From: Selaginella moellendorffii
Lineage: Eukaryota > Plantae > Lycopodiophyta
Length of the DNA stretch: 64,000 nucleotides
Direction: 5' to 3'
Assembly: GCF_000143415.4 (NCBI RefSeq)
Contig: NW_003314278.1
Coordinates: 2,128,408-2,192,407, forward strand
Position numbers and translations under genes: made by a program. The stretch's first letter is position 1. Each line of letters starts with the position of its first letter. Under the pieces are notes generated by a model, which worked only from the letters and a program-made list of their open reading frames with translations, ran no database searches and was not told the DNA's origin. This document shows, in pieces, positions 1 through 40,479 of the stretch.

Positions 1-90
1 TCGCTAGCCTGAGATACATCTGCTCGGCATCTGCCTCTTACAGCATTTGCCCAGAAAGGGCATCTTTCTTCACGCAGCATTTGCCACATG

Positions 91-3805: not shown

Positions 3806-3970
3806 ACTCGCGCTCGCACACTCGCGCTCGCATCGCGCTCCCACTCGCGCTCGCATCGCGCTCCCACTCGCGCTCGCATCGCGCTCCCACTCGCGCTCCC
3901 ACTTCTCTACAGGTTTCTCGTGTGCATCGGCGTCCACTCGCGCTCGCATCGCGCTCGTGTGCATCGGCGT
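3806..3970 (+). repeat. GC-rich ~23-bp tandem repeat (CACTCGCGCTCGCATCGCGCTCC), copy-number variable between element copies
   Basis: Two more units here than at ~1024-1140; diverged version at ~25634-25765. Confidence 0.8.
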
Positions 3971-7400: not shown

Positions 7401-9840
7401 AAAGCACGTTGGACAGTCGTCGAGATCAGAGGCGTTTGATTCGAAAAGGAAGAAGGGCAACGAAAAGATGATAGGTAATGCCTCGCGGTTATGGCGTGTG
7501 TGCTCATGCCATTCATTGCAGATCAAGGGCTGAGTGAAAGCAGGCAGTCACCACCTCATGACTCAGATTCCTATGGCGGACTCCCCTTCCCCAATCTCAA
7601 TGGAGAGGTACAATGGATGAGGGAAGCTTTTCAAGGCAGGGCCACGTTTTTCTCATCTCGTCGTCTTCGAAGGGTGCAAGAACGTGCAGAAACCATGTTA
7701 AGACAGTCGGGTGAGGATACGGTCCTAGGTCACGCACTAAAACAAGCTATGGATGTCTTGTATTTTGAGATGGAGACTCGGCCAGATGATTTTCCCAAGA
7801 TGGTCCTGGAAGAACAAGCCATCCAGCCTGAGCAGCCTATGGAAGAAATGCAGGAGGGGGATGAGGAGCCAGAGAAAGATAATGAGCAAGAAGAGCAGAA
7901 GGACGAAGAGGAGGACAAAGAAGAGGAGGACAAAGAAGAGCAGGACGAAGAGGACTTGGATGGTCCTCACAATGGTGACGATCACAATAACGACGACGAC
8001 GATGATGACGACGATGGCCAGCCTGAGGTGGCCAAAGAGCGGCGGAGGAAGGTCATACAAGACAAACCATCAGGTAAATAATAATACATCCATTCCTAAC
8101 CTTTTACCATTTCTAACATTGTCCATGTAGGTCGCAGAGCAAATGGTAAGTAGAGATTATTCAGTTGAATTTACAAACTCTAGCCTTTAGTGTCGAGGAA
8201 GGATAGTGCCAAGCAAGGGTCGAAACGTATGTCCAATCCTTCAGAATCAGCAGTGCGCTCAAGTGATATCGGTCCTAGTTCCTCAATAGCAGTTGATGGT
8301 AAATACAGTATAGTCGATTCAATGTGCTAATGAGTTTGTTTTTAGTAGCACGGGAGGATACCATCTCAATCGAAGGGAGATATTTGGACATGCATATGGA
8401 TCCGCCAGTGGACTCTACTTGGCTGCAAGAGTCATCAGAGCTGGTGGAGGCCACTATCCATATCAACGCCAAGCAAGCTGACCACGCTCCACTTGATGCT
8501 GCCCATACCACTGAGTCAATCTTGTCCACGTATCCAACTGACGGTGACCAGGCGCCATTGGACCCACATGAGGCCGCCCCAGCCGCCGAGCCGGTCGTAT
8601 CCTCATTTCCAATGGACTCAACGTGTGCCCAATCGTCTGACTACGCGCCGTTGGAACCTCCCTACACCGCCCCTACTGCTTGTTCGGTCATGTCCACTTT
8701 GCCAACGGAGGCACCAGCTGAAATGGCGTGTGATCACACGCCATCGGAACCACCCCATGCCACTGTTGAGCCAGTTGTACCAGAGTCTACAGCTGAAATG
8801 GCATGTGCCCACACGCCATCGGATGCGATTGACCCCACATTGCAGAGGAGAGTATTTCCGCCCTTCACGTTTCCTCGACCAAAACCCTCTCAACGACCAT
8901 CGGGAGCAACATTCGCTAATATTGTAGATGGTAAAATTGACTTGTACCATTTTTTATGCTGACGCATTTCATTTCAGAGTCACGGCGAAGGTACTGTATC
9001 GTTTTTGATCTGAACGGTGTCCTTTTCTCCCATGAGCGTGGCTCGTCCTCGAATGTCATTGCACCCTCCAAAGCCTGTGGTCGCAAGTTGGTCAAAAGAG
9101 ACAGATTCACATTAATCACACGGGAGAAACTGCGGGATCTAATAATGACCATGCGACACTTAAAACAGAGGGCCGGGTTCAATTTGCAATTGGGAGTTTG
9201 GACATCCATGATGCGCCACAATGCATTAACGTTGCTACAGATGATGCACGATCAGACGCGAGTAATATTACCATTTGACTTTCTCCTAACGCAGGAGGAT
9301 TGCTTGACTATGGTCCATGTGAGGGGTAGCAAGCCCATCTTCGTCAAGCCAGAGGCTGTAGTGATGAACCGGACTGCTAGCTCAAGTGAAATCCTCATCA
9401 TCGATGACTCGCCGATTAAAACTGCAGCGAACACGCACACATATGCAGTGCACCCCATCTCTTGCAGTATGGAAACTAGGGAGAAGAAACCGTATGTTCT
9501 GGGGGACCTTGCAAAACGGCTTGGAGCGATGGTGATAGAGAACCGGCCAGTCCAGGAGGTGGCTGCAGAAATCAACCAAATGGCAGATGGAACGGTATAT
9601 CAGAAGCCATTTGATCGGACAGACACCAGTCATCATTTATGGCATGTATATTGTCTAGCCAAGCACTATCCGCATCTCCATAATCTGCTCAACCGGATGG
9701 GTTCTTCGACCACTGAACATGAGCGTGGACATATTAGAGAAGAGATGGCATTACTATTGGGTTTAAATCCTGATAGTGTGGAGAGTGATGAAATTCCAAG
9801 ATTATTGTATAGGCGTTGGAGGCAAAAAATAACAGTCTGA
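4419..9840 (+). CDS. Transposon accessory protein (spliced, ~1600+ aa): ParB/Srx-like domain + degenerate beta-class N6A/N4C DNA MTase fold + basic/acidic/Pro-rich linkers + FCP1/SCP-like HAD phosphatase domain
   Basis: The ORF pieces join in frame across GT-AG introns at 7017-7066, 7154-7209 (or -7191), 7282-7330, 7475-7521, 8074-8130, 8146-8190, 8299-8345 and 8931-8977; stop at 9838-9840. Motifs: IDVSRI..HRLVSDEWVEKL..FYAVSGQHS (ParB-like; the SGQHS part is read from copy B because A' has a gap there), NPKKAP..GKCVVEYNCGGLFFRAALLKGVPCVAV (MTase motif X/I/II-like), IVFDLNGVL..VWTS..FVKP..LIIDDSP (HAD/FCP1). The 5' exons and start codon are uncertain (possible ATG 4177). Confidence 0.75.
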
Positions 9841-10258
9841 GATGGCATGTATTTATTTAAAAATGTAACTTATTATGGCATGGTGTTCCATGCAATTGTA
9901 TTAATATTAAAAGACAATTCTTTGAGAGGATTTGCATTATACTAGAAGTGTTACAGCATGTTATTGGAAGTCTACGAAGTTGTTTTATTAATAATGGGAA
10001 AGTAAAGATTGAATGGGGACTTGGGCTCCACCTAGACTCGGAGCAACTGAGCCAATATTAAAAGGATGGAAAGAAATTGGACGACGATGACAAGGAGAAG
10101 AGAGAGGTGAAGCAGTGGCAGGGGGAGGAGAAGTGATTGAGTAGACATTTCCTTGTTTAAAATAAAATGGCATGTGCCTCAATGCAGTTGAATTTTGTTA
10201 TATTTATATACTATATAAAGGTTTGGAAACCTTATTTTACAAGTGGGATAATGACAAT

Positions 10259-10282
10259 TCCCACTTTAACGAAATAGAGCTT
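10259..10282 (+). repeat. Right terminal inverted repeat of transposon copy A'
   Basis: TCCCACTTTAACGAAATAGAGCTT, identical to 39506-39529. Confidence 0.9.
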
Positions 10283-19170: not shown

Positions 19171-20277
19171 AATGATGCTCTTGCAAGGTTTCCTGTTACT
19201 AACAATGGCACTATTGGCTTTGAGAATGGGGACGTTTACAGAAGGGGTTATAGACTCTAGAGAGAGGATCTCTTTCGGAGCTACAGCAGGGGCTAGAGTG
19301 GGAGTCCCAATGATCGGCAGAGTCGTGGATGAAGTCGGTCTCCTAAGCTCACGGGCGATTCCTTGACAGCTATGGAGTCGCCAACGATGGTGGCTAGGCG
19401 AGATCATTCGATCGATCAGGGACGCAAACACAGCAGCTCATTTCTTTTGAGAACCAACGGAGCGCACCAAAAGTTTGATTTTGAACCCTAAAAGCTCAAT
19501 CAACGGCTCAGATTTAGGTTCGCTTAACATATATGTATGTTTTTAGGGTTCTAGCCACAAGCTTTATTTCGTTAAAGTGGGATTTATTCAGTAAAATGGG
19601 ATTAGGTACAAATTTTCAAGTATTTGAAAATGACGTGAAATTATATATTTTTTGTCCAGGGGCTAGACATATCTGGGACATGGTGACTAGCGCAGTGACT
19701 TTATGTCCAGACTAAGTCCATCTGGTTGTATAATAAATCTCATTGTCAAGGTGAACAAGCCGAATCTGAAGCTAAAGAAGAGCGATGGCATGCGCGCACA
19801 CACTATTTGTTTGCTCATTGAGCGTGTGGTGAGCTTTCCAAGATGAACGTCATTCCTATTAGCCAAACATATAACTTAATGATGAGAACATTTAGATATT
19901 ATTCAATGTTATCTTTTTCTAACGAATCTAATTGTGAAGGTGTAGCAAGAGGCATTGCTAGTCTGGAGAAGTCATTTAACTCATTTGACCCTTAGTGTAT
20001 TTTCATGAAACTAAATAACATTCATATTATTAAGGAATTTCTCTAGTACCTTTTTTTTACGACATAGAGGCTTGCATTTCTTTCAAAGGTGATTTAGTAA
20101 AAGGCCTGAGGGCACATGCCATTCTATTTCTCAGACCGGTATTAAGATATACTAGTGCAAAGGGAAAAAGGTATTTGGTGATCAAGTAAATGGCATGAGG
20201 GCACACGCCATTATAAGCCTAAGCGCTAGTGGACACCTCCTTTTTGGTGTCACGCCTCACGCCATCACGCCATGCCA

Positions 20278-23200
20278 TCACGCCTCCTCTGATTCAGATT
20301 CGGATTGTTCACCTTGAAATAAAATACATTAAAAACTTAGTAAAGGAATATTAATGAATCTCACCTTGAACCCGGGTTATGAATGCTCTTGCTGCATCTC
20401 TTGCATGGTCTGGCAAGGTGATGGTGGCACTCTGCTTCCGCATCCAACCATGCACAACATTATCCACCGATATGCTCATGCTGGGATCCCTTGGATTCAG
20501 CACCTATCTCTTTTCTAGGCAATCCTTCGTATATCCGGAACTTGGCTTGAACCACTCCACAGTTACATTGAAGGAGTTAGTTTCCGCGTCCTCCTCTGCA
20601 TCAGTGATGCAGCGCCCCACCCATATCATTTGTTTTTTATTACTGGGTCTGACAAGCACGACCATTCCTTTGCAGACCTGTACTAGATTGAATGCTGAAT
20701 CCGGCTTCTTGTTCCTCGGCCCATAATAGTGATCCTCAACATCGTTATCTGTCACTGCATTTCCAGAGGACATTGTTCCGCTACTATCTGGTGCTCTAGG
20801 TTCTGGCCAAAAGGACTCTTCCAATTCTTCATATACAACCGGCCCATTTTGGATAGCAGATATAATCTTCTCCCAGTATTCGAGCAAAAGCTTGCACCTC
20901 TTAAAATAGGATTCTCCACCAAACACCAACCCCCTCTTCCAGAAGGCAATATGCTGTCTAATCCCGGCCACTATACTTTCCTGGTCTTTGAGTCTATCCG
21001 GGTGCATCGGCCGTGAGGAATCCTGAGGAATCATAGGTTCCCCAGTTATGGGATCTCTCTTGAAGAGTTCAATGCCATCCACTGGCAGCCACAGTGTGTC
21101 CCATTCTCTCATCTTGTACCTCATCACTAGAGCACCGTCACGCATGCTGAAATGAAACTGAAGAGGCTTGGAGTGGCCAATCAGCATTTTGGATCCGTCC
21201 CTGATGTAGCCTCTTACAAACCCCTTAAAGTCTTGAACCTCTGTCACAAGTGCAGCTTCAACAGTGCCTTTGATGCAATTTTGGAATTCATCGTAGAGTT
21301 GTGGGAGGGTGAGGACATTGGATCGCCGGAGGGACTCTGCCAGGTGACTGAACATGGCATCAACGCCTTCATGAGTGTGCCCAACCATAAGAAAGCCAAG
21401 TGTAACCGTTTCAAATATGCCTTTGGCAACAAGCATCGCCAAGTACGCGAAGACGTACATGTTTTTGTTCTCACTGCCAGCATTGTCTGTTTGGAGCAGA
21501 AGATGGGGTGGAAGGCCACATCGGCCGCAAGAACTTCCTTGAGATTTTGCTTCGTTTGGATGAGGCTGTGCATTCACCGGGCGACCAGCCTCATCGGAAT
21601 GGCATGAGGCCTCACGTGATAACCCTACAATCTGACGGCCAACATATTCACTGGGATGGCATGGGGCCCCACGCAATACTGCAAGCCTTTGCTCCTCCTC
21701 CAGCTGAACCCTGTATGGGGTTCGATCGACAAGGGCCTTATGCAAGGGTTGGCCGTTCAGCTCAGTCTGCGCACTTTGCAGAGACCTTAAGTGTTTTGCT
21801 AGGGACGCAATCATCATGTTTGCACCCCCACCACCCCATAGAGGTACAAAGAAGTTCCCATAGTTCTGGGCACCATGCCCATGAGCGATTATGCCAAACA
21901 GAGACACAGGCAGCTGCATGGATGAAGAGATTGCCTTGGGGGCAGGATTGAGTTGAGGTAAGCACGTCTTTTTCTGGTCCATTTTGTCGTGGATGATGCA
22001 GAGGTAAGAGTTAGGTCTCTCCATGGAGAGAATTCTGTTATGATAATATGCAGTCCTGCAGCTTCTCTGCTCGATGTTGTGGTCGAGCCGCCTTCTAACC
22101 AACGTCTCTCACTCTTGAGCGCTGCAAGAATTCTTCGACAAAGCCATTTTGATAGCAGTGCACTCGTCACACTTTGAAAAGCTGGAGTACTTTCCTATAC
22201 TCACATCCCTGAACCTGTTGCTCCACAATCTACTAAATCTAGATTGGCTCAGCTTCCTGTAGCCATTACTCTGGAGTTCCCAATTCACATCTTCCAATAT
22301 GGCCCCCTTGGTATACATGGAAGGGAGAACTCGTTGGGTGTCTCGTGTTCCATCTTCCAAGAGGCGGGTTTTATGTGGTTGCTGCTCGCTACATGTCTCG
22401 ACAAACCTCTTGAAGATTGCCTCTCCATATACAACATGACCCTTAGTTTTGTGTGTACCGTCGTTCCCATGGACTGCCTGTTGAACCCTTTGTTCTTCGA
22501 ACTCAGTTTTGATTCTGTAGAATGTGCTTTGAGAGACTCCATAAATGATTCTCCATGCCTTCATGCAGACCAAACCCCTCTGGAAGACCATGCCCCCCAC
22601 CTGATGTTCTGAAGCATCAACAGATGACCGTAATGCCTCATACACAAAATTGCGAGCTGCCTTCTAGGACAATGTCTTGTATCTTGCTCTCTCCTCTTCA
22701 ATAGCATCTCAATCAGCATGTTGACAGCACCTCCTCTTGCAACAAGCAACTGTCGAGACCATTCGAACCTCCATCGCCATTTTCTGCCTTTTCGGTTCGT
22801 TGCTCAGATCCCTTTGGCTGCGCTGTAGGAAGGTATACTTTCTTTTCCCATGAAGAGATGTTCTGTCATCAGTTGTAGTGGTGTTTGATTGTGAATCCTT
22901 CACATTCTCAAACACTAAATGCCTCAATTTCCACCGCACAATGCTTCCAATAGTCAGACTGTTTTCTTCTGTGTCAACAACCTTTAAAATCGCAACTCCA
23001 ATATTATCCCAGCCCAATTCTTGATTAGCAACCGCATCTCTTGGATCGACAACTGTGGCTAAGCCCTCAGCTACCACCTCCCCCTCGGGGTTGTTTAGAA
23101 ACACCTTTTCCTGAATCCATGTAGCACGGTTCTTAAGATCCACGGAGGGAACATGCGTCGCACTTGCGCTGTCCCCAACATTTGCTTTCTTCTGCAGATT

Positions 23201-23419
23201 TTTCAAGGCAACAACAACATTTACCCCGACGACCATCTCTCCTCGTTCAATAGCGACCACATTCCCATCGAAGACAGTCTCTACTGATACAGCAGCATTG
23301 CCTTCCCCAAGCCTTTGACAGTGTATAACAAAGTTCCGATCCATAGACACAAGGGTCCCTTTTGCAACTCTCTTCCCACCATTCAAAATCTAAACCTTTT
23401 CCCCAACCCTGAAGGCCAT
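20278..23419 (-). pseudogene. Transposase (~1000 aa) with five in-frame nonsense codons: two N-terminal Tnp1/En/Spm-like repeats, Cys-rich region, RNase H-fold DDE/D core, C-terminal SH3/Tudor-like beta domain
   Basis: ORFs 23386-22709, 22645-22109 and 22102-20504 are all in one frame from ATG 23419. Motifs: IIHDKMDQ, LQTDNAGSENKN, FLMVGHTHEGVDAMF. Terminal intron 20364-20313, then GEQSESESEEA*. Confidence 0.85.
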
Positions 23420-26400
23420 TCTGAAAGTGCAGAAAAGAAGTTAAGACCATACAAAAAATGATTGGAGAATGGCATAAATCATAACATACCAAATAGCATG
23501 AGGCCACATACCATTATTCAAACATGCTATTGACACCCACGTGAAATTTCGCATTCACAAAATTGGCATGAGGCCTCATGCCATCTTGATATACACACAG
23601 CTGCAGGCAAGTAAAAACATACATGACAATACGCTAGCCATGAAATTGCAAGGGCCCAAGATGGCATGTGGCCTCATGCCATTTCTAAATGTGGTCGTAA
23701 GCCATTCCATGGTGAACATACCAGGAAGCACAAGTGCCGAATATCAAGAGGAAGCGGTAGCCACACCAAAGACAGTGCCGCTCGCAACACCGCAACTACT
23801 CGTAGCGCCGCTCGCAACACCACAACTGCTCGTAGCGCCGCTCGCACAAACTGCCACTCGCATAAACTGCTGCTCGCAATGGCACTCGCAATGCCGCAAC
23901 CGCTTGTAGACGCATAAACCATAGCTCACAACGCCGCTTACACAAGCAATGCTCACTGCGCTCAGCGGAACCAAGAACACGGCGCACAAAAATGATAGAC
24001 CTAGGAATGAGTTCGAGAATTCAAAAATAACACACGCTTGAACGTCACATCAAATCCTTTGACAAACCAGATCTTATGATTCCTCTGACAAATTTCAAAC
24101 TGAGTAGCTTCTAGACTTTGCTGTCGGAGGTTGAACTTTGTCACATCATGTCCTTGCCTCGATCCAGCTGTGCCATGTCAGTGATTCGAACTTTGCCATG
24201 CTGTGCCAGCGATCCTCGCCAAGATTATTTGCCGTGTAAAGGAATAATTATGCTGTGTGTGTACGTCCATTTATGGCAATATAAGGCCACACACCATTCA
24301 AAGAATAATGCTAGTCGAGCATTTTTTGGTGCATTTTTGGGTTCAAAATTGCATGAGCCCACACGCTATAAAGTTTACCTATACCAAAAATAGAAACAAC
24401 TTTATTTACTTGGGAATTTAAGTGGTTGAGGCATTTTTAAACTTACAAACACATGCCCTACTTACATTCCTTTGGTTGCTTAAAATTCAAAAATATTATA
24501 AACCTTTCTTTTTGCATTTTCAATGTTTTCAATTATGGTTTTTGATTTTCGCAGGACCAGTCTAGTAATCTATTTGCATCCTGTCATGTTTATAGCTAGC
24601 TTTCATTTGTCCTCTTCGCTAGCCTAAGATACATCTGCTCGGCATCTGCCTCTTACAGCATTTGCCCAAAAAGGGCATCTTTCTTCACGCAGCATTTGCC
24701 ACATGTTTAGGGTTTAGGTTTTAGGGTCTAGCAATTCAGTAGCTTGATAAACATGCAAATACAGAACTTTATGCAAAATCCTTTGATATGTCACAATGCC
24801 CCTAGGACTATAAACACATTTCAATAGAGAGGGTCCTTTCATTTTATAACTCCTTACGTAGATCTTGGTGAAACCAGAGTTAGTGAAGTTGGTTTCTTGT
24901 GATTCCGCATCTGATTGTGATGTCCCTTTGTAGTGTCGATAGAAAGGTCAATGCACACCAAACTGTAGAATCTTGGAGCAAAATAACAGTCGGATCTATG
25001 GCAAATGCCCCTGAAACATTGTAAGGCTTGTGTGGTCTTATGTGGTATTCGATTGAGATGCTTCTTTGCAGGGTCATCAAGAAGGACATTGTATACCATT
25101 CTGTAAAATCTAGTTGCGATCTAACGGTTGGATCTCCAGAAAACTCAAAACAATCTCGCGCATGTCAGAATATTCTAGGAATATACTCCTATGTGCCCCT
25201 GAAAATGGCATGCGGCCCCACGCCATTCAAAAGATAACGCCAGATGACACCGAGCATTTTTTGGTGCATTTTTTGGGATCAAAATTGCATGAGCCCACAC
25301 GCTTGAATGTCATATCAAATCCTCTGACAATATATTTAGCTGAACATCTGGCATTTTTGGAAATACAAGATGCTTTGGAATATCCAATCATGCATGGTAT
25401 AAATATAGCAAGGGTATTAAATGATATCCCAATCATGATCTTTCTTTTGGATTTCGCGTGCATGCAGTCTGAGGAATGATGACGTTGCGGATTTCTTTTG
25501 GATTTCACGTGCATGCGCGCGGCGATCCAGAAATTAATGGTGGCACCCAAGTCCGAGGAATGATGACGTGGCGGGATTACCAACCGTCGTGACATTTCGC
25601 GCGTGTGAGGTTAGGTTTTGCATTTTGCTTCGTACTCGCGCTCGCATCACGCTCCCACTCGCGATCACGCTCACATTCGCGCTCATCTACCTTCTCTACA
25701 GGTTTCTCGTGTGCATCGGCGTCCACTCGCGCTTGCATCACACTCGCGCTCGCATCGCGCTCGTGTGCATCGGCGTCCACTTCAAGACACACCCAGTTTG
25801 TAACTTCGCCGCCAACTCCGCCGCCCACTCCGCCACCCACACGCAGCCCACTTGGCGTCCCGGGAGATTTCAGCGCCACTCTCCAACTGTAAGTGGCAAA
25901 GTAGCCTTGCTGCTACGATCCGCTGCACACACAGTGCACATTCGCCAGCGAGTCCGGTTGTCACGCCTCCATTCAGCTTCAAATGGTAAGTCTTTTAGGC
26001 CAAATAGAAAATGGCATGAGGCCACATGCCATTCAGTAGCAACATTGGCATGCACCGATTGGGCTCTCGAGTGCAGTCGGGTTACAGATGGCGTGTAGCC
26101 TCACGCCATCTTAGGATGCAGCCTCAAGACATCTGATGCAGTGGTGAATGGTGTGTGGCCTCACGTTATTTCCAGTTGCTAGCTTTTCATCTGTCAGCTC
26201 TAATTGTTGTGCATTTCTGAATAGGCGAGGAATTGCGTTCTTCTTCCAGCCACTGTCAATGTGGATGCAAAGAAGGGGGAGGAGTTCACCAGTTGGACTT
26301 TCGGGATGGAAGGCGAGGATCTGAGGCTGTACAACACAGATGGTGGGAGAAAAGAATGCATGGGGATCCTCATCCAAGTGACAGACACTCCATGCAGTTC

Positions 26401-26964
26401 CATGCAAGAATATGGACTGGCACTTGTGGTAAAGACAGCGTCTGCCTTCAAGATCCACCTTGCACATCCTAGTGGCTTCCCAGAGGGGGGCAGTGGCTAT
26501 GAGGAATTCCTAGAGGGAGCTAGGGAGAGGTTGTCCAGGAGGCCCACAATTTCAAAGACGCTGCGGGTCTATGAAGATCACATGGAATCCACGGACCTCA
26601 CCTACGGCGATGTTCAAAAACTATATTCCAACATTGAGCCGTTGAGAGTGCCTCCAGTTCGCGAAGCGAAGGGGAAGGGGGTCGATCTGGAAACTACCCC
26701 AAAGCAGAAAAGGGTGGTCAAGCTCAAGCCGACTGTGAGACACAAAATCCCTAGGCCCCAAAGTGGAGCCGGAAGGGCGCCACATGGTAGTGGCCGAAGC
26801 GAGAGCCAAACGAGCGTAACACGTTTGGACCAGAAGCTCCGACTTGAAAAGTCAAGAGCGGGAGTGGAACTCCCAACGAAGTGCTCGAGGAACGAGCACG
26901 AAGCGAGCAAAAGGCAAGGCTCCAAAAAGGGACCCAAAAGGACCAACACATGAGACGTGGGAGT

Positions 26965-27348
26965 GTCCGAGATGGACTCGAGTTAGAGTCCGAAGTGGAG
27001 TCCGAGATGGACTCGAGTTGGAGTCCGAAGTGGAGTCCGAGATGGACCCGAGTTGGAGTCCGAAGTGGAGTCCGAGGTGGACCCGAGATGGACCCGAGTT
27101 GGAGTCCGAAGTGGAGTCCGAGATGGACCCGAGATGGAGTCCGAGATGGAGTCCGAGATGGAGTCCGAAGTCGAGACCGAGACCGGGACCGAAACCGGGA
27201 CCGAGACCGAGACCGAGACCGAGATCGGGACCGAGACCGAGATCGGGACCGAGACCGAGACCGAGGCCGAGGCCGAGACCAAGCCCGAGCCCGAGTCCGA
27301 GTTCGAGTCCGAATCCGAGTCCGAGTCCGAGTCCGAGTCCGAGTCCGG
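26965..27348 (+). repeat. Compound minisatellite in the 5' LTR (GAGATGGAGTCC-type 11-mers, GAGACC/GAGTCC hexamers)
   Basis: Direct inspection; source of spurious low-complexity ORFs. Confidence 0.85.
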
Positions 27349-30300
27349 AGCCTGAGAGGGTGAAAGCCCAAAGCGTTCGTCTCCCAGATCCTGGGGGGTT
27401 TGGTGAGCCCCAAAAGTATAGTAGGGGGAGGACTGCAGTGAAGCCAGTTTGGCCAGGAAAGGCCAGTTTGGCCCAGGAAGGCCAGACCCAGTTTTGGGTG
27501 ATGAGCTGCCCACTGGGAAGTCCAAGACTAGAGTGAACACAGACCGACAAGCGGGGTAGCTTGGTGAAGTGTTCAAGAGCCGGCTCTAGTTCCCCCGGGA
27601 GATCGACTGGCCGATGCTCCCAGTCCAAGTGTGGGTGGCACTACCTACTTGGATACCAGGTGTGGCTCAACGAAACCTCGCTCTAAGCCCATGGCTAGAG
27701 CACCTAAAGGCGAAAGGCGGGGAGAGTACCTAGGTGGCTCGCGTAAGGCCACGGTGTTCCGAAATGTTGTCCCAAAGGCCCAGACTGTGGAAAGGAAGAG
27801 GAGCAGTCCTCTGGGGTAGTGACCAAGGACACAGTCGTGTGGTGAGGAAGTCCCAGAGGACCGTGGGACTTAGTGGTCGGGCCTGTGGGTCTCGGTCCAG
27901 TGGCAGTGTTGGCAAACACGGCCAGGGGCAGAAAGGGACTTAGTGGGGACTGACAGAGCGATATTGGGGAAGGCTATTCCCCTTGTCGGTGGGCATCCTA
28001 AGGATGCTAAGGAGTGGATCTGAGATGACCACTCACGGATGGTTTGCCTAGTCTTGGGGAGCCAAGACTGTGATGCAAGGGGTATTGGACTACCAGTGTG
28101 GCAAAGGTGAATGGGCATGGCCTTAGCGTAACGGGCCGAGATGTCAGTGGTACCTTTGGGTGTCGGTCATGGGATCGGACACGTGGAGCACTTGGACCAA
28201 GTGCAAAGGTTGAGTGGCATGGATGCCATTCTCGGGGCTAGCAAGCCCCAAGTCCTAAATGGGACTTATGGAGGTTGTGAATGAGACTCCTCCAAGTGGT
28301 CGGAGGTGTGGTTAAGTGACTAAAGTAAAATGGAAAAATTAGTCGCTTACAATTTGGTATCGGAGCTGTTCCTTAGTCTGACTTTTATTGGTGCTCAAGT
28401 ATATCACCACTGGTGTTGGCAACGGAAGGTCCAAGAAGTGGGCCTATCCTTGAGGAGTAGTAGGTCGGGAAGACATGGCTCTCCATTACAGTTCATGTGT
28501 GGACTTGTAGACAAGGTGGTGGATAGAAAAGGGGGCCAATAATGGAACGACTTTGGGATCTTGGGAACAGTGCAAGGTTTTCCTCATTGAGTTGAGGAGG
28601 TGATCCAGATGAGCATTTGACTCAGCAAACGGGCTAATGTAGTTGGGGTAAACAACTATAGTTGGGATCACGGGGAAGATAGAGACTCCAAAAACAATAA
28701 AGGAGTCACGGGTTTATCCTCACATGGTTGAGGCTGGTGCTCATGAAGGTGAGACCGGAATGGATGACCGTGAGAGGTCAAGTATGGATGAGGACACGAG
28801 TCCTCGAAATGGTAGCCGAGGCTACCTCTAATAAATGCTGGAACAACCCAAGGAGTTGGGGGTGTATTAAGTGGATGAGTTGGTATTCTCATCACATGGA
28901 CAAGTAGTCCTAAGGGGTAAAGGTTGCCCCCAGGGAACAAATCAAGTGACGGAGTAACACTTGTGAAAATAGTCCCTTTGAGTAGGACAGGAATGCAAGA
29001 AGTGTATTCCAGTGAGCTAGTGCCTCACAAGTAGGACCTTACGGGTCGGTGGATTAACCAAGTCCAAAACTGCTAGACGACTCAACTAGAGTCAAGGGAT
29101 GGTCCTAAAAGGACTGATAGAAGCATTTGGATTGAGGTGCGTTGTACCCCACAAAGGATGGGGGGGGATCATAGGATCCAAGGATGAGAACAGAGAGTAT
29201 TTCATCGATGACAAAATGTGCCATGCTAAAGTTATGGGAAAGGTGTTCCCAGAAGAAAACAACTTTGACATAAAGTTGTGTGTGACCTCTATGGGGCAGT
29301 GCTAACAGATGGTTGGCATGAGAAAGAGTGGTGTTGGTCTTGGCAAAGACTTAGACACGAAGGGAAATGTCATAGAGGTAGGCTCGTGGAGCCGATGGTG
29401 TGAAGACACCAAATGTGCCAAGGTGTGATACCTTGAGGCTATGATGGTGGGTTCATGAGAACCCCTTGCTAAAGGAATCCCAATGGAAATGGGAATGGCA
29501 TAGCCTAAGCTGCAGAGCATGCAGTTGGAGTGTGGTGACCCAGATAATGATGGAGGTGTGAAAGCACCAAGCAATGAGTTGTAGGACTTGACAACTATGA
29601 GGCAACTAAGCAAGAGGTGCAAAATAACTGATTAAACGGGTAGAAGGTAGCTACCCAAGACTTCTAGTATAGGGAAGTCGGATATACCCTTACGGGGGAT
29701 AAGTTTCTTATGTTGCGATATAGTAAGTCAATGTCATAAAAGGAAATACTCATTGTCAAGAAAGCCATCATTGGGACACCCGAACACTCTAGAACACTAG
29801 AAGGTGGTGTTTGATATCGCGAGGGCAATGGATAAAGCCCAAGGGACTAAGTCCCTAGCGAATGATGGATAGAAGGTGCTATCCAAATGTCCAAGGTTGC
29901 GGAGACAGGAGAGGACTGTCTACCCAAGTTGGACAAAGCCAAAAATGGAATTTTGGCAAGGCTAGTGATGGGCATGTAAAGGCCCATAAGCAACAATGTA
30001 ACCCCAGTGTGTGGGATTATAAGCTGAGCATACCCGGATTGAGGAACCACTCCCTGGGCTATTGGGTAGGTTCATCCCTAAGAATACTTGCTAAGGCATG
30101 ATAGAAAGTGCAAAGCTATCCTCCTGGTCTGGAGGAGAATGACCGAAGGAAAGGTGTGAAGCCAAAGGCAAGTAGTGTTGGGATGGAACTGAACCATAGA
30201 AATCAAAGGGCATATCCAACAGTGGTTATGGAAGTTGGGAGTGGAGAATCAAGAGGGTGCTCGAGGATGTTGTTGCTAGCAACCGTGATGCCATGGAGAG

Positions 30301-32676
30301 TCTAAAATATGGAATTGTCCATGTTAGACTATATGGCAACTATAAACCTTGCGAAAGGGGAGGCCTTAGCAAGCTGAGGGACAGAGTTCCTTCAAAGTTC
30401 CCAAAGACGATTCTAGGTAGCGTAGTACCTAGAAAGGCCAAGTGTAAATGGTTCATGGAACGCGCGAAATCAGAGTGGCGCAGCAGAAGTGTGGTCTTGA
30501 AGCTTGCCATAAGGCAAGGTTATCAAGGTTAGGGAAGTAGTTCCCGAGTGTTCAAAGAGAGGGCTTTGAACGAAAGTTGATGGTCAAGGACTTTCACGCT
30601 TATGCAGGAACCATGTTACAATGGTCGGAGGACTTGCCAAGTGAGATTGGCACGTCGGGGGAACAAAGACCCTAGTTGAAGGTGATATCTTCAAAAAGGG
30701 TGGGCCAGGGGGCCGAGCATGGAGGAGTCCATGCATGATCATAGACATGTCAAGTGAGAGGACTTGGCAGTGTGGAGGAACTAGGTTCCTAAGCTGTGAT
30801 CTGTAGCGCGCTTTAAAAATAGGTTGGTGCACCGGCGTGGGGAGTCACGCCAGGCATCTAGTGTGATGTCGTCCGTAGATGCATATACGGAGGTTGGGTT
30901 TGAGTCCCGACCCTCTAGTGCTTGGGTTCGAGTCCCAAATCACTAGGGCGTGGTGATGGTTTGGAATATGAGGACACTCATATTTCGGTGGTCATGGACT
31001 CTCAGTGGGGAGACTGGTTTGGGCACACCGCCAAGCGAGGGATGCCTCGGAGTCGTGATGCACGGTTAGATTGCTTAGTGTGAAAGCTCAGCATATCTAA
31101 CTTGAACACTTTGGTGCAAGTGGCACCAAGGTCGTGGTGAGTGAGATGGGGACACCTAATCTTAGTTGCTATGAACCCTTGGCCGTAAGGGCTAGCTTGG
31201 GTGCACCGCCAAGTGTGGGGGATGCCCCCGGGGTTATAGTCAACAACTTGGAGGTCTAGAAAACCAAGTACCTCTTGGCAACTCTGTTAAGGTGCCAAGG
31301 TGAGATCACTAGGTGATCTTATGGCCAGAAAAGGACAAGGTCCTTGGTTGGCTAAGGAATGAAGTTCCTGGTTCAAAATGTTGAAATTGAACTGTTTAAG
31401 GTGGTGTGGCTTGGTCGTGATAACCAAGTGGAAAGAGCACCTAAGGGAAATAAACTATGTCCGTGCGATGGCATAGTGAGTCCGAGGAAAGTAGTCTCTA
31501 TAAAAGACCCATGGGAGGGTCACGAAGTTGGGCCGTGGATAGAGCCCATAGCAGAAGATGCTAAAGAGACGTACTAGGGGTGAACATCCTCCGGACTTGG
31601 CAAAGAAGAGTCTTTGCTATGGAACCAAAACAATACCTCAAGGAGGGAGGTAGAGATTCGATGATGCTTGGTGCAACAATCAACGGATAGGAGCAAAAGA
31701 TGAGTGGCCAAGATAGGGCCGTGGAATCCCTTGGAAGGAATCCAAGTGACAAAGTTAGGCGAGGAACACTAATGTGTTGGACGCTAACAAGTTGCGGGAA
31801 AGGAAGTGTGTTTCCAAGGAGGGATTCCGAATTGCTCCGATTTGGCGAAAGTGGAAGCTCCAAAGGAGGGAGCGGTAAGGTAGCCAAATGATAGGGCGAT
31901 GAACAGCCCTAGCACAAAGTATGATAACTGGAACTTTGACACGAAATAGGAGAGAGGATGATAGTGCCCTCGAGTAGAGAACTTCCTAGGATGGGAAGTG
32001 GAGTTGCACAAAAGGTGCAAGGCAAGGTGTCGGAGACACCTAGGAAATTGACTCCAAGAAGTCAAAATTCAAAGTTCCAAAGTGCAAAGGTTATATCGAT
32101 AGAAATTGAAACTACTCGAGAAGGAGTAGTGGGATTGACTTAGAGAAGGGTCTCTAAGAGGTTTAGCGAGAACTAAACCAATAAAAGGAGAGAACCACTC
32201 CATGTGGTCCAATCAGTCTCTAAGTTGGGGAGACTACCCTCCTTAGAGGATATGCAAGGCATGGTGAGCATTTGGTGTCAAACCATTGAGGCATATGCAA
32301 AAGGCATGGTGAGCCTTCAATGTCAAACCATTGACAAATATTGGCTAAGTGCCAAGGATGGAAATGGTAACACATACGAGTGTTACTTTACAAAATGGTT
32401 TACCGTTCGATGAGGACATCGAACTTCGTCTATGGGTGGTGGAGTTGTGAGACACAAAATCCCTAGGCCCCAAAGTGGAGCCGGAAGGGCACCACATGGT
32501 AGTGGCCGAAGCGAGAGCCAAACGAGCGTAACACGTTTGGACCAGAAGCTCCGACTTGAAAAGTCAAGAGCGGGAGTGGAACTCCCAACGAAGTGCTCGA
32601 GGAACGAGCACGAAGCGAGCAAAAGGCAAGGCTCCAAAAAGAGACCCAAAAGGACCAACACATGAGACGTGGGAGT

Positions 32677-33223
32677 GTCCGAGATGGACTCGAGTTAGAG
32701 TCCGAAGTGGAGTCCGAGATGGACTCGAGTTGGAGTCCGAAGTGGAGTCCGAGATGGACCCGAGTTGGAGTCCGAAGTGGAGTCCGAGGTGGACCCGAGA
32801 TGGACCCGAGTTGGAGTCCGAAGTGGAGTCCGAGATGGAGTCCGAGATGGAGTCCGAGATGGAGTCCGAGGTGGACCCGAGATGGACCCGAGTTGGAGTC
32901 CGAAGTGGAGTCCGAGATGGACCCGAGATGGAGTCCGAGATGGAGTCCGAGATGGAGTCCGAGGTGGACCCGAGATGGACCCGAGTTGGAGTCCGAGATG
33001 GACCCGAGATGGAGTCCGAGATGGAGTCCAAGATGGAGTCCGAAGTCGAGACCGAGACCGGGACCGAAACCGGGACCGAGACCGAGACCGAGACCGAGAT
33101 CGGGACCGAGACCGAGATCGGGACCGAGACCGAGACCGAGGCCGAGGCCGAGACCAAGCCCGAGCCCGAGTCCGAGTTCGAGTCCGAATCCGAGTCCGAG
33201 TCCGAGTCCGAGTCCGAGTCCGG
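32677..33223 (+). repeat. Compound minisatellite in the 3' LTR, expanded relative to the 5' LTR
   Basis: Same units; the 3' LTR is 1781 bp versus 1618 bp for the 5' LTR. Confidence 0.85.
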
Positions 33224-36200
33224 AGCCTGAGAGGGTGAAAGCCCAAAGCGTTCGTCTCCCAGACCCTGGGGGGTTTGGTGAGCCCCAAAAGTATAGTAGG
33301 GGGAGGACTGCAGTGAAGCCAGTTTGGCCAGGAAAGGCCAGTTTGGCCCAGGAAGGCCAGACCCAGTTTTGGGTGATGAGCTGCCCACTGGGAAGTCCAA
33401 GACTAGAGTGAACACAGACCGACAAGCGGGGTAGCTTGGTGAAGTGTTCAAGAGCCGGCTCTAGTTCCCCCGGGAGATCGACTGGCCGATGCTCCCAGTC
33501 CAAGTGTGGGTGGCACTACCTACTTGGATACCAGGTGTGGCTCAACGAAACCTCGCTCTAAGCCCATGGCTAGAGCACCTAAAGGCGAAAGGCGGGGAGA
33601 GTACCTAGGTGGCTCGCGTAAGGCCACGGTGTTCCGAAATGTTGTCCCAAAGGCCCAGACTGTGGAAAGGAAGAGGAGCAGTCCTCTGGGGTAGTGACCA
33701 AGGACACAGTCGTGTGGTGAGGAAGTCCCAGAGGACCGTGGGACTTAGTGGTCGGGCCTGTGGGTCTCGGTCCAGTGGCAGTGTTGGCAAACACGGCCAG
33801 GGGCAGAAAGGGACTTAGTGGGGACTGACAGAGCGATATTGGGGAAGGCTATTCCCCTTGTCGGTGGGCATCCTAAGGATGCTAAGGAGTGGATCTGAGA
33901 TGACCACTCACGGATGGTTTGCCTAGTCTTGGGGAGCCAAGACTGTGATGCAAGGGGTATTGGACTACCAGTGTGGCAAAGGTGAATGGGCATGGCCTTA
34001 GCGTAACGGGCCGAGATGTCAGTGGTACCTTTGGGTGTCGGTCATGGGATCGGACACGTGGAGCACTTGGACCAAGTGCAAAGGTTGAGTGGCATGGATG
34101 CCATTCTCGGGGCTAGCAAGCCCCAAGTCTTAAATGGGACTTATGGAGGTTGTGAATGAGACTCCTCCAAGTGGTCGGAGGTGTGGTTAAGTGACTAAAG
34201 TAAAATGGAAAAATTAGTCGCTTACACTGACGTCCGACTCTCCTACTCCAAAAAAGAAGCTACTCGGTGATGCCATTGCCTCGGGTTCGAACACTACACC
34301 CACCAAAAAGAAGAGCCGCAAAGAGCAGAAAGAGCAAGAAGAGGCAGCAAAAATTGTCGCAGATAATAGTACTTGTTACTATTCCAATAAAGTATATACA
34401 ATCGACGTGAGCCGTATCGACATCCAAAGCAAATACAACCACAGGCTAGTATCTGATGAGTGGGTGGAGAAACTGAAGCAGAAGATGCTGGCAAGTCCAG
34501 TAACACCCGACATCGCAGACGTGATCCCCTACTACCGAACAATGAAGGGCAAGACGAGGTATCCAGACTTGATTAATAGGAAGGTGTTGGACGATCAGAA
34601 CATCCGGTTCTATGCCGTCTCCGGGCAGCATTCTAGCTTGGCGATGCAAGAGATAGTTGTGGATATTATGGTGGGCGAGGAGGTGAAGAAAGTCTTCAAG
34701 ACAAGAGTTGTCCACCTGGTAAAAGGCAACTTGCCCCTCCGATCTATCATATACATCTCCCACGCGCAGAATGTCAAGCAAGAAACGTGCTACAAATCGG
34801 GTCTGCATTGGCATTGGCACGAACACGGAAGCTCTGGGTTCAACTGAAGAAGCCACAAAAACCAAGACAATGACGTGCACTAGCAACTAGCGCCTCGCAG
34901 GTAAGCCTCGTTGCATGTGGCATAGCATGTGGCCTCACGCCATTTCCATTGCAGGAATTCTCGAGTCTTCTCTCGAAAACACTGGGGGTCAATGACACAC
35001 TCAGCATCCATAACATTCTACTCGCGACAAAAGTTGTTTTTGACAAATAGGTAGATGTGCTGAGGAGGTACCATGACGGGGAGTTACTAAACTCAATGGG
35101 TGTGGAGGACGGCCGGAAGCCCAATGATTTGAAGCTCAACGCCTTGCGTTTCTCGCGGTCTCTAGACAACGACGACCTTTTGACAGTGGCTAATGCTCTT
35201 CTACGTAGTGAGGTAGTCTTCAATAAGACCAAAATGACTCCCGGCTATATTGTGACATACGAGGACTTGTGCACGACTCTGAGAGCTCGTGCGCTATTGA
35301 AAGATTGGATCTTTGAGCAAGTGGCCGTGGAGAGGGTGAGCATCGACACCACGCAAGAGATGATGGAAGCGCTGGATTTGTCAAATGAAGACATCGACGA
35401 GTACGTGAAGGGGGCCCCCAAGTTCATCGATCTGCTGCGGGATGCCACGAAAAGTAAAGCTGAGAATTTGGATCAGTATCCAAATTTCATTAAGAGTGAT
35501 GTCAACCGCCGACTTCAGAAACAGCTCGACCCCACAGCAGAGGCCTATCGAGAACCTTACCGGGTATACTTGAATTTGGATGAGGATCAAAGGTGGAGGA
35601 GTATCATTTCCCGCGGAGATGAGCAGGTCAAGAACATCTTTTGTGTGATGGACTTCACAAACGAGGAGATCACTCATGCAGACGAAGTCAGCTCCATCAT
35701 TGACTTAATGGTGGGACTTGCGGAGGTGGAATCTTCAGTCCACTATATAATCTACGACTCCGAATCCTATCACAAGTTCTCGAAGGCCTTGAACGAGGTG
35801 AACGCTCGGTTGAAAGGCAAGGAGATGCGGGAGATCTATGGGATAATGGCTAAGAAGAAGATACCGACGAATGTTCGCATCTTCACACTCGCCTTTGTTA
35901 TTGGTCCTGCAGCAGAGTGGGTCTGGAGTGACTTCCCAGCTTCGTTCGACAAGGCCGATCGAATTGATCTAAGGGAGGTCAATTTACCCGTGCCTGAGGA
36001 ACTGAAGACGGCTATGGAGCTTTCGAATCCAAAGAAAGCTCCAAGTGCAGCATGGGAAATGCTCAGCTGGGTCTTCAACGCAATAGCGGGTGGGTCATCT
36101 GCTTCCGACTCCAAGGGCAAATGCACTGTCGAGTACAACTGCGGCGGACTATTCTTTCGAGCCGCACTACTCAAGGGTGTCCCGTGTGTTGCGGTGACAA

Positions 36201-39200
36201 ACTCCATTGAAGAGGTGACTTCAATGGAGCATATAATTACAGTTGCCAAAGAAAAATAGTATCTTCTCTGCGAACCTGGTGAGTACGCACTTTAAGTTTA
36301 AATGTTATCTCACAAGCTCTGTATGCAGGAGCGTGGCCACCCCCAGATGCTGAAACGGCGTTAACAGCTACTGTTGAAGATACCCATGTTGGGCCGAGCT
36401 CACAACCTGCACAAGGTAAGGTCACGTGAGGCCTCACGCCATTTTGATTATAGATTGTTATGAATATTCAGACACAAGGACTGAAAAGCGCACTGGTGGC
36501 GCGTCGAAGAAGGACAAACAGACAAGCAATAGGAAAAAAGGAGGTACAAATTATATTTGCAATGGCGTGTGGTCTCATGCCATTCCTTACAGGAGACACT
36601 TCTTCAAAGGCAAAACAGGCAAGCACCAGCCAAGCTCAAACTGACAGTGGTCATAAAAAGTGAAAGCACGTTGGACAGTCGTCGGGATCAGAGGCGTTTG
36701 ATTCGAAAAGGAAGAAGGGCAACGAAAAGATGATAGGTAATGCCTCGCGGTTATGGCGTGTGTGCTCATGCCATTCATTGCAGATCAAGGGCTGAGTGAA
36801 AGCAGGCAGTCACCACCTCCTGACTCAGATTCCTATGGTGGACTCCCCTTCCCCAATCTCAATGGAGAGGTACAATGGATGAGGGATGCTTTTCAAGTCA
36901 GGGCCATGTTTTTCTCATCTCGTCGTCTTCGAAGGGTGCAAGAACGTGCAGAAACCATGTTAAGACAGTTGGGTGAGGATACGGTCCTAGGTCACGCACT
37001 AAAACAGGCTATGGATGTCTTGTATTTTGAGATAGAGACTCGGCCAGATGATTTTCCCAAGATGGTCCTGGAAGAACAAGCCATCCAACCTAAGCAGCCT
37101 ATGGAAGAAATGCAGGAGGGGGATGAGGAGCTAGAGAAAGATAATGAGCAGGAAGAGCAGAAGGATGAAGAGGAGGACAAAGAAGACGAGGACGAAGAGG
37201 ACTTGGATGGTCCTCACAATGGTGACGATCACAATAACGACGACGACGATGATGACGACGATGGCCAGCCTGAGGTGGCCAAAGAGCAGCGAAGGAAGGT
37301 CATACAAGACAAACCATCAGGTAAATAATAGTACATCCATTCCTAACCTTTTACCATTTCTAACATTGTCCATGTAGGTCGCAGAGCAAATGGTAAGTAG
37401 AGATTATTCAATTGAATTTACAAACTCTAGCCTTTAGTGTCGAGGAAGGATAGTGCCAAGCAAGGGTCGAAACGTATGTCCAATCCTTCAGAATCAGCAG
37501 TGCACCCAAGTGATATCAGTCCTAGTTCCTCAATAGCAGTTGATGGTAAATACAGTATAGTCGATTCAATGTGCTAATGAGTTTGTTTTTAGTAGCACGG
37601 GAGGATACCATCTCAATCGAAGGGAGATATTTGGACATGCATATGGATCTGCCAGTGGACTCTACTTGCCTGCAAGAGTCATCAGAGCTGGTGGAGGCTA
37701 CTATCCATATCAACGCCAAGCAAGCTGACCATGCTCCACTTGATGCTGCCCATACCACTGAGTCAATCTTGTCCACGTATCCAACTGACGGTGACCAGGC
37801 GCCATTGGACCCGCATGAGGCCGCCCCAGCTGCCGAGCCAGTCGTATCCTCATTTCCAACGGACTCAATGTGTGCCCAATCGTCTGACTACGCGCCGTTG
37901 GAACCTCCCTACACCGCCCCTGCTGCCTGTTCGGTCATGTCCACTTTGCCAACGGAGGCACCAGCTGAAATGGCGTGTGATCACACGCCATCGGAACCAC
38001 CCCATGCCATTGTTGAGCCAGTTGTACCAGAGTCTACAACTGAAATGGCATGTGCCCACACGCCATCGGATGCAATTGACCCCACATTGCAGAGGAGAGT
38101 ATTTCCGCCCTTCACGTTTCCTCAACCAAAACCCTCTCAACGACCATCGGGAGCACCATTCGCTAATATTGTAGATGGTAAAATTGACTTGTACCATTTT
38201 TTATGCTGACGCATTTCATTCCAGAGTCATGGCAAAGGTACTGTATCGTTTTTGATCTGAATGGTGTCCTTTTCTCCCATGAGCGTGGCTCGTCCTCGAA
38301 TGTCACTACACCCTCCAAAGCCTGCGGTCGCAAGTTGGTCAAAAGAGACAGATTCACATTAATCACACGGGAAAAACTGTGGGATCTAATAATGACCATG
38401 CGACACTTAAAACAAAGGGCCGGGTTCAATTTGCAATTGGGAGTTTGGACATCCATGATGCGCCACAATGCATTAACGTTGCTACAGATGATGCACGATC
38501 AGACGCGAATAATATTACCATTTGACTTTCTCCTAACGCAGGAGGATTGCTTGACTATGGTCCATGTGAGGGGTAGCAAGCCCATCTTCGTCAAGCCAGA
38601 GGCTGTAGTGATGAACCGGACAGCTAGGTCAAGTGAAATCCTCATCATCGATGACTCACCGATTAAAACTGCAGCGAACACGCACACATATGCAGTGCAC
38701 CCCATCTCTTGTAGTATGGAAACTAGGGAGAAGAAACCGTATGTTCTGGGGGACCTTGCAAAACGGCTTGGAGCGATGGTGATAGAGAACCGGCCAGTCC
38801 AGGAGGTGGCTGCAGAAATCAACCAAATGGCAGATGGAACGGTATATCAGAAGCCATTTGATCGGACAGACACCAGTCATCATTTATGGCATGTATATTG
38901 TTTAGCCAAGCACTATCCGCATCTCCATAATCTGCTCAACCGAATGGGTTCTTCGACCACTGAACATGAGCGTGGACGTATTAGAGAAGAGATGGCATTA
39001 CTATTGGGTTTAAATCCTGATAGTGTGGAGAGTGATGAAATTCCAAGATTATTGTATAGGCATTGGAGGCAAAAAATAACAGTCTGAGATTGCATGTATT
39101 TATTTAAAAATGTAACTTATTATGGCATGGGGTTCCATGCCATTGTATTAATATTAAAAGACAATTCTTTGAGAGGATTTGCATTATACTAGAAGTGTTA

Positions 39201-40479
39201 CAGCATGTTATTGGAAGTCTACAAAGTTGTTTTATTAATAAGGGGAAAGTAAAGATTGAATGGGGACTTGGGCTCCATCTAGACTCGGAGCAACTGAGCC
39301 AATATTAAAAGGATGGAAAGAAATTGGACGATGATGACAAGGAGAAGAGAGAGGTGAAGCAGTGGCAGGGGGAGGAGAAGTGATTGAGTAGACATTTCCT
39401 TGTTTAAAATAAAATTGCATGTGCCTCAATGCAGTTGAATTTTGTTATATTTATATACTATATAAAGGTTTGGAAACCTTATTTTACAAGTGGGATAATG
39501 ACAATTCCCACTTTAACGAAATAGAGCTTCCACCAAGGTAGGGATATGGTGTCCAAGAAAGTGAGAGTGTGGCTGATCCTGCAAGGATCCACCTCCCCAA
39601 ATTTTGAGGTGTTAAGTGAGTGCTCCAGTATCAGTTTGAAATTTCTTTGAAAGCTTCTTCTCATTTGCGAATCTTGACACCACAAATAGTGATGCGGAGC
39701 TCGCAATCCCCACTGACTCGCCCATGTGGCTGGCCAGTTGGAAGGGTTCTCATACAGGCTCATGAGGGCAGTCGGTGGGGTTTGGGAACTCTGCATGACT
39801 GCTCATGGGATCAAGATTTGTGTCATGGTGTTAGGAAGCTGTCAATCTGAGCCAGAGTTCCTTCGGCGTCTTCGTGTTCTCCATGAGCAAGTGACGCAGA
39901 AAGTAGCAGCCTTCATGGCCAACTTCCCAGTGTCTACTGTTGAGTGTGATATGTGCTACCTTTCTCAAGACTGAGGGAAGAGATCAATCGTTTTTGTAAT
40001 AGAAACTTGTTTTTGTAAAGCACATCCTAGTAGCGTGATATAGATTCACAAGCAAGATTAGCAGCCTGGCAGTGGGGCTTTCGCTCTTGGTAACTTTCTT
40101 TTCTCGACTCCTTTGGATGACAAGCAGATGAAGATCACACGTCCAGGGAATGTTTTGTATCTGCTATAAATGAGATCTGTCCGGCCGATCATGTGAGTGT
40201 TTTTTTGAGTTCTTTTCTTATGAACGACCAACGCCAATGTTTCCAGCAAAATATCGCTGCGATAGAGAAGGAAAATATTTTCAGGAGAAGTTTTACAACT
40301 TTGAAAAGCTCGAATCACACGACAAAAATGCAGGTGAATCTATCTTCTTGTTCTCGATCAATGCATTTTACTGGCTTTCTAGTTCTCGAATGATTCGTGC
40401 TGTGTTTGGACAGGCAAATGAAGATCACATGTCCGGGAAATGTTTTCTATCAGAAGATGTTCGAAAGGAAAAGGGAGTT

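Follow-up and report, generated by a model that had tools for sequence, protein, structure and literature searches.

A family-specific 22-bp palindrome dispersed through a Selaginella moellendorffii DNA transposon as a candidate site for an element-encoded ParB-like protein

Bacterial ParB/parS systems combine a ParB protein encoded in cis with a palindromic site of about 16 bp, several copies of which are present per element. The subject of this report is a DNA transposon of the lycophyte Selaginella moellendorffii, here called element B, in which a predicted ParB-like domain occurs together with a dispersed 22-bp palindrome; it lies, with a second copy (copy A), in a 64,000-nucleotide stretch of contig NW_003314278.1 that we refer to as the window. 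Several described transposons offer points of comparison. In the Mutator-like VANDAL elements, which have an accessory gene, the VANC motifs lie in non-coding regions and introns (PMC5735166); the motif is of 9 bp, in same-orientation tandem copies, both binding and demethylation have been demonstrated, and the accessible parts of the reports give no ParB-like domain (PMC5735166, PMC10398659). Spm TnpA, a transposase-derived helix-turn-helix (HTH) protein, has a 10-bp non-palindromic motif limited to the termini (bioRxiv 10.64898/2026.08.24.746577). ParB-like proteins are described for two algal elements. In the red alga Bostrychia, a Plavaka element with an EnSpm/Plavaka transposase has tandem inverted-repeat arrays next to PAG3, a ParB-like protein with a 2-oxoglutarate oxygenase partner domain that is proposed to bind and modify the element's own sequence (bioRxiv 10.1101/2025.02.11.637652). 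In the brown alga Ectocarpus, Sola1-1_Ec32 has a 282-bp terminal inverted repeat (TIR) and, opposite the transposase, a gene joining ParB to a recognisable N4/N6 methyltransferase, proposed to bind its own transposon; palindromes are not mentioned in the main text of that paper, as far as it was available (PMC12477816). Eukaryotic ParB-HTH methyltransferases are also described from chlorophytes and chytrids (PMC4738411). Self-binding by a ParB-like transposon protein has thus already been proposed for algae, judging from the available text of these sources; what is added here is a land plant, a defined candidate site and an overlap of that site with predicted introns and branch-point-like sequences.

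An earlier, sequence-only reading of the window had listed 20 copies of ATGGCRTG-N6-CAYGCCAT in element B and six in copy A, and had taken them for the binding site of a dimeric protein, with a possible parS-like role. Palindromes are present at all 20 positions in element B and all 6 in copy A, although only 10 of the 20 match the pattern exactly. Across the 64-kb window the exact pattern occurs 21 times (0.00 expected), rising to 32 matches when up to two mismatches are allowed (0.08 expected). A symmetric profile with a cut-off of 14 bits finds 40 sites against a null mean of 0.05; trained on the element B sites, it is circular for that copy. Element B holds 22 of them, including two, at 24348 and 25284, that had not been listed; 17 are in copy A and one lies outside. 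The enrichment inside the element is pronounced, with 39 of the 40 in 21.6 kb of element DNA and one in the remaining 40.9 kb (P 3e-17). This single outside site, at 50528 within a pentatricopeptide repeat (PPR) gene, is weak and has three mismatches, while the best score in the nested long terminal repeat (LTR) element, 10.2 bits at 30832, is inside the null range. The earlier reading had seen the motif in neither the LTR element nor the host gene island; the first has no site above 14 bits, and the second has the one weak site. The viral contigs that were scanned contain no copy of the palindrome.

This confinement bears on the idea that a host dimeric transcription or chromatin factor binds the sites and is exploited by the element. 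Placement in untranslated regions (UTRs), introns and a divergent promoter would suit any regulatory factor, but the 41 kb outside the element hold just the one weak site, related elements carry unrelated palindromes, and 22 bp, of which about 18 positions are constrained, make a long site for a plant factor. We regard such a factor as very improbable.

The consensus of the 22-bp site is ATGGCRTGWGGCCWCAYGCCAT. The base counts of the 44 half-sites are A40 T42 G33 G41 C40 (A22/G21) T44 G43 (A20/T17) G41 G31. The central six bases, previously described as a variable spacer, are themselves constrained, half-site position 9 being A or T in 37 of 44, position 10 G in 41 and position 11 G in 31, and the site is therefore one continuous imperfect palindrome. 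Variation of the flanks, claimed in the same statement, is confirmed, since they are mutually unrelated (median identity 0.30, maximum 0.48). Neighbouring sites cluster at spacings of 54-98 bp, and a test of close sites for helical phasing gave no pattern.

The symmetry of the palindrome is not accompanied by covariation between its arms. Among the 22 sites of element B, positions 6 and 17 form Watson-Crick pairs in 10 cases (10.5 expected) and positions 9 and 14 in 8 (7.7 expected), the latter being mismatched in 13; mismatches on the transcribed strand are as often A-C (5) as G-U (6). Such independence of the arms argues for a double-stranded site for a dimer, and against a hairpin. Full sites outnumber isolated half-sites in element B by 22 to 3. 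At the CpG position CA is found 21 times, CG 18 times and TG 3 times, and the equality of CA and TG that CpG decay alone would give is rejected (P 3e-4), implying that the sequence is read base by base. Overall, the pattern reads as that left by a two-fold symmetric protein on double-stranded DNA.

The sites also avoid predicted coding DNA and, with the lack of covariation and the rarity of isolated half-sites, this supports the dimeric binding site that had been suggested. On an exon-intron model predicted from the DNA alone, coding sequence occupies 67% of element B and holds 4 of its 22 sites (P 4e-6), whereas introns, at 8.6%, hold 10 (P 5e-6); splice signals are the only backing for the 5'-UTR introns in which three of these 10 lie. 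The other 8 are in non-coding DNA outside predicted exons and introns. Within gene bodies, where introns make up 13%, 7 of 9 sites are intronic (P 2e-5). Those in coding sequence make up two pairs, each in frame, one 57 bp apart in the variable insert of the transposase alignment and one 75 bp apart in a low-complexity linker. In all four micro-introns that bear the motif, the right half of the palindrome supplies a branch-point-like CTCAY 15-17 nt before the 3' end; introns free of the motif have branch-point-like words 14-18 nt from the 3' end in 5 of 6 cases. An introner-like origin of these introns was considered and dropped, because they have only the 22 bp in common. The intron placement and branch-point overlap, like the differing palindromes of relatives described below, go beyond the earlier reading. 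Coordinates are collected in Table 1.

Table 1. Features of element B and copy A, in window coordinates
Feature	Coordinates	Strand	Details
Element B, TIR DNA transposon	19559..39529		12,476 bp minus nested LTR element; basis TIR pair and target-site duplication
Left TIR	19559..19585	+	27 bp, 93% complementary to right TIR
Right TIR	39503..39529	-	27 bp; right end also marked by X4 contigs
Nested LTR retroelement	26734..34228		7.5 kb; two ~1.4-kb repeats 98% alike; control only
Copy A	1..10282		Second copy, with gaps and an internal duplication; 96-98% identity; 17 sites
Predicted transposase gene (approximate ends)	20315..23420	-	DUF7869, PF25273 E 3e-42
Predicted multi-exon accessory gene	25702..39087	+	Divergent to transposase; split by LTR element
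ParB-like domain (DUF3723/ParB_N look-alike)	34380..34805	+	Atlas and PHROG
Middle alpha/beta domain	35612..36256	+	N6_N4_Mtase lead only, atlas 0.84
NIF/FCP1-like HAD domain exon	38225..39087	+	PF03031 E 2.6e-5
Four palindromes (19785, 20101, 20190, 20244)	19785..20265		Between left TIR and transposase 3' end
Two palindromes, 57 bp apart, same frame	21599..21677		Variable insert of transposase coding region
Three palindromes	23493..23682		Predicted 5'-UTR introns of transposase; GT/AG signals only
Three palindromes (24348, 25205, 25284)	24348..25305		Between the two divergent genes
Three palindromes	26011..26169		Predicted intron 25986-26224
Palindrome	34922..34943		Predicted 54-nt intron 34901-34954; CTCAC 17 nt from 3' end
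Palindrome	36421..36442		Predicted 38-nt intron 36416-36453; CTCAC 17 nt from 3' end
Palindrome	36562..36583		Predicted 49-nt intron 36544-36592; CTCAT 15 nt from 3' end
Palindrome	36753..36774		Predicted 47-nt intron 36737-36783; CTCAT 15 nt from 3' end
Two palindromes, 75 bp apart, same frame	37970..38066		Low-complexity coding linker of accessory gene
Palindrome	39122..39143		Just 3' of accessory gene stop

The regular position of CTCAY in the micro-introns could also be taken to mean that the palindrome acts as a hairpin in RNA or single-stranded DNA, or as a splicing signal, its stem sequestering or exposing the branch point. We give this little credence: the arms show no covariation, A-C mismatches are about as frequent as G-U, positions 9 and 14 are mostly unpaired, 8 of the 22 sites fall neither in a predicted exon nor in a predicted intron, and Rfam gave no match. 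A side-effect on splicing is, in any case, compatible with a site for a ParB-like dimer.

Which element-encoded protein might read the site? The accessory gene, from 34229 to its stop, is predicted to have nine GT-AG introns of 38-57 nt, with exons that chain in one frame. In element B it is broken by four premature stops and by a frameshift at 34807; two of the four stops were checked, both being sense codons in copy A, and the frameshift is absent from contigs of runs X4 and X1. The ParB-like domain reaches atlas scores of 0.96-0.97 to DUF3723 and unnamed clusters and 0.92 to ParB_N, together with a weak ParB-like match in PHROG (E 0.26), so that the earlier claim of a ParB-like domain in cis survives as a lead. 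No member of the ParA family was found among the 9 open reading frames (ORFs) of the element that were scanned. The middle domain was a lead for a beta-class N4/N6 methyltransferase that the profile test does not support, a hidden Markov model of 32 relatives scoring it below shuffled sequences and hhalign giving a probability of 0.2%; further searches produced no match, and a motif likeness seen by eye was discarded as evidence after the profile test. Single-sequence folding of this domain yielded no usable model (mean predicted local distance difference test, pLDDT, 34). An acidic linker separates it from the NIF/HAD domain, which would be an unusual cargo for a transposon and may be inactive. 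The first motif of the NIF/HAD domain is DLNGVL, where the canonical form is DxDxT. Homolog searches for the accessory domains found none, and the sole representative match, a thrombospondin-repeat protein, is spurious.

It is probable that some protein encoded by the element binds the palindrome. Our preferred reading, which we put forward tentatively and at somewhat short of even confidence, is that a dimer of the ParB-like accessory protein which the element encodes binds the palindrome as double-stranded DNA, and that the palindrome serves family self-recognition and regulation. Each 11-bp half, ATGGCRTGWGG, would be contacted by one subunit. Sites would build up where sequence is cheap, in UTRs, introns and variable protein linkers, with short in-frame duplications as a partial source, and the palindrome would suit introns of 38-54 nt because its right half could also provide the branch point. 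By analogy with VANC and TnpA, the bound protein might promote expression or counter silencing. An extended version, which we think unlikely as a whole, is that a land-plant transposon has repurposed a ParB/parS module: the ParB-like protein would load at palindromes in introns and UTRs, spread, and deliver methyltransferase-like and C-terminal domain (CTD)-phosphatase-like domains that keep the family active, with the same 22 bp serving as branch points and the site being rewritten in each family.

Evidence from relatives of the transposase supports turnover of the site between families. The relatives comprise 74 loci encoding related transposases, most of them short or decayed, and the window palindrome is absent from these apart from one weak match. 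Several have palindromes of their own: there are 11 copies upstream of the transposase in L004, at a spacing of about 140 bp, 5 in L031, 4 in L028 and 1-4 in L001/2/3/5. A further palindrome, with the core GTGGCCAC, is present in 2-19 copies in eleven non-redundant loci of group G1, in arrays to either side of the transposase. Four of these loci served to seed the G1 profile, and the loci, being homologous, are not independent. Apparent transposase introns also contain palindromes, namely in G1 (L037, L019, L050, L054 and L016), L028 and L031. In contrast to this diversity, an HTH-like helix of the transposase is conserved among relatives, and the window element has in common with L004, L006 and L007 (3 of 9 examined) a TIR-like core that follows the transposase, so that the palindrome evolves faster than the end-recognition system.

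Other details of these loci may be recorded here. A 16-bp palindrome of the GGTGTTTATAAACACC type follows the transposase stop in L001, L004, L006, L007 and L008 and is kept where the upstream palindromes are not. The G1 elements have a common sharp downstream end, …TAAATATGTGTT, at L019:12695, L037:7138, L073:3668, L016:8245 and L014:12833, and no upstream TIR matching this end was found in the G1 contigs. L031 has a divergent ORF at the contig edge.

The transposase itself has an HTH-type domain, predicted from a model of a relative, and could therefore be the binder. It appears to be DUF7869/Sola-like, with two SH3/Tudor-like N-terminal domains, a Cys-rich/HTH region and a DUF7869 core; of 6,514 candidates, 27 are relatives of the DUF7869 protein, and those that are named come from Riccia and Tribonema. 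Sola transposons have a DDD transposase; three aspartate motifs conserved in the alignment here, HDKMD, DN and HTHExxD, may be catalytic. The gene in element B is disrupted by stops and a frameshift. A structure search by sequence gave no match for the transposase, and in Foldseek its N-terminal half matched nothing at E 0.001, with only weak tandem Agenet/Tudor rows. In a predicted model of the N-terminal half from the relative L004 (mean pLDDT 66), two small beta-barrels give weak Agenet/Tudor/KOW matches (all Z below 8) and an HTH/winged-helix domain matches domains of CENP-B, TnsB and MuA at Z 5-6. The tandem barrels begin the transposase at L004:1965-2600 and at 22709-23420 in the window, and the structures that they match best, though weakly, are tandem Agenet domains that read H3K9me; chromatin targeting by these predicted barrels is possible.

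On this rival reading the HTH-type domains of the transposase would recognise the palindromes, which would act as internal enhancers or in autoregulation, and the ParB-like gene would have a different role. The predicted HTH/winged-helix fold favours this, as do the palindrome-bearing relatives in which no accessory homolog is detectable, and the G1 arrays on both sides of the transposase and within its intron; a Mutator transposase, moreover, is described as activating its family in Arabidopsis by itself. The palindrome is, however, unlike the TIR, the majority of sites lie kilobases away from either end of the element, and relatives with completely different palindromes keep both the HTH-like helix and the TIR core. 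We consider transposase binding rather unlikely, and return to the ParB-like protein as the preferred candidate.

Several observations weigh against that preference. The ParB-like domain has no match in Pfam or the PDB, searches found no homolog of it, and the CTP motif of ParB, GxxR, reads GQHS in it (within SGQHSSLA) and so lacks the arginine. Searches detected no homologs of the ParB-like, middle and NIF domains in the 74 related loci, including G1 loci with about 4 kb scanned upstream, although these loci are decayed or truncated and the ParB-like domain of the window itself lacks a Pfam match. The survey of relatives is not clean either. In a strict flank-independent test of 47 non-redundant loci, 27 of the 74 having been removed as redundant, 3 loci and none of 5 controls beat the null by at least 2; a loose palindrome test is passed by 15 of 34 loci, five of the 15 being plain tandem repeats, and also by 4 of 13 controls. 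No read spliced across a predicted intron was found. RNA run X24 has 0 reads on 34230-39600, yet reaches about 150x on the host AP2 gene. Contigs from X20, the RNA nature of which is a guess, cross two predicted introns unspliced, which could be explained by DNA of an abundant repeat. Finally, copies A and B differ at 6 of 306 motif positions and 73 of 2688 other non-coding positions (P 0.57), a comparison of low power.

This lack of excess conservation, and the ability of any repeated DNA to pass the loose test, would be expected if the palindromes had no function and had arisen through local duplication, or through template switching at a palindrome, in an element that is itself successful. 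Their clusters at 54-98 bp and the in-frame duplications that make up the coding pairs agree with such an origin. Against it, the 22 bp are kept while the flanks are unrelated, CA is favoured over TG, and template switching would perfect the symmetry, but the arms vary independently. We judge a functionless origin highly improbable, and continue to favour binding by the ParB-like protein.

The ends of element B are well marked. Its 4-bp target-site duplication, CCAC on both sides (one insertion), and its 27-bp, 93% TIR agree with the Sola DNA transposons, for which a 4-bp duplication is described (PMC10741241) and TIRs range from 11 to 1124 bp. The TIR is unrelated in sequence to the palindrome. 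The right end is corroborated by three contigs of run X4 that exit there into other flanks, and copy A ends at the same right TIR with a different flank. Summed contig depth in run X1 is about 5e5 on the element and about 200 on host genes, a figure that is not a copy number; the family is apparently very abundant. The ratio of observed to expected CpG is 0.68 in the element, against 0.97 in host genes, and suggests methylation in the past. The nested LTR element has a 5-bp target-site duplication with one mismatch.

Some smaller features were noted. In copy A (1-5231), a join near 3390-3477 runs through an internal direct repeat (24316-24367 / 25251-25303) that holds motif copies, which suggests deletion or misassembly there. 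Near the left end, the arms of a 47-nt inverted repeat (19746-19792 / 20271-20317, 83%) each end in a motif half-site. A short run of the plant telomere-like TTTAGGG lies between the two genes (24698-24731 and 90-123). The host island at 46107-57987 contains the AP2 gene, which is expressed, and three PPR genes with few introns. The host PPR-E and AP2 genes, together with the telomere-like repeats and the very short introns, would fit a land plant that bears no seeds.

How, then, does this system relate to those already described? Like the Bostrychia Plavaka element, it is a DNA transposon that encodes an accessory protein of ParB-like type and in which inverted-repeat units recur, binding being a proposal in both; in the Selaginella element the sites are scattered over the two genes, have flanks that are not related to one another, and occur in predicted introns. 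With Sola1-1_Ec32, as described, it shares a large TIR element, a 4-bp target-site duplication and a gene on the opposite strand that encodes a ParB-like domain, and differs in that the methyltransferase is a lead and a NIF/HAD domain is added. As with Spm TnpA and the AtMu1 transposase, an element-encoded, sequence-specific regulator would act through clustered cognate motifs (bioRxiv 10.64898/2026.08.24.746577). The likeness to VANDAL lies in a family-specific motif, enriched in non-coding regions and introns and diverging between families, and in the presence of an accessory gene (PMC5735166, PMC10398659). In contrast to the tandem motif of VANDAL, the window element has a 22-bp palindrome with unrelated flanks and a DUF7869 transposase, although arrays do occur in the relatives G1 and L004. 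The palindromic site, its several copies and the ParB-like domain in cis recall ParB/parS; the absence of ParA among the ORFs scanned, the missing CTP-motif arginine, the 22-bp length and the implausibility of a segregation role for an integrated element do not. The system is VANC-like in placement and turnover and parS-like in symmetry, and belongs to neither class. A literature search of openly available papers and bioRxiv main texts found no report of the motif, of DUF7869 or of a land-plant ParB-like transposon gene, nor any defined site for a ParB-like protein or overlap with introns or branch points.

As far as the available text of these sources goes, self-targeting by transposons has been demonstrated only for VANC and for TnpA/transposase regulators, the algal ParB-like case being a published guess with no defined site. 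In this land plant, the well-defined 22-bp candidate site, its candidate protein and the apparently very high abundance of the family make that guess directly testable. If the proposal is true, sites that double as branch points and palindromes specific to each family would show how sites of this kind can spread at low cost.

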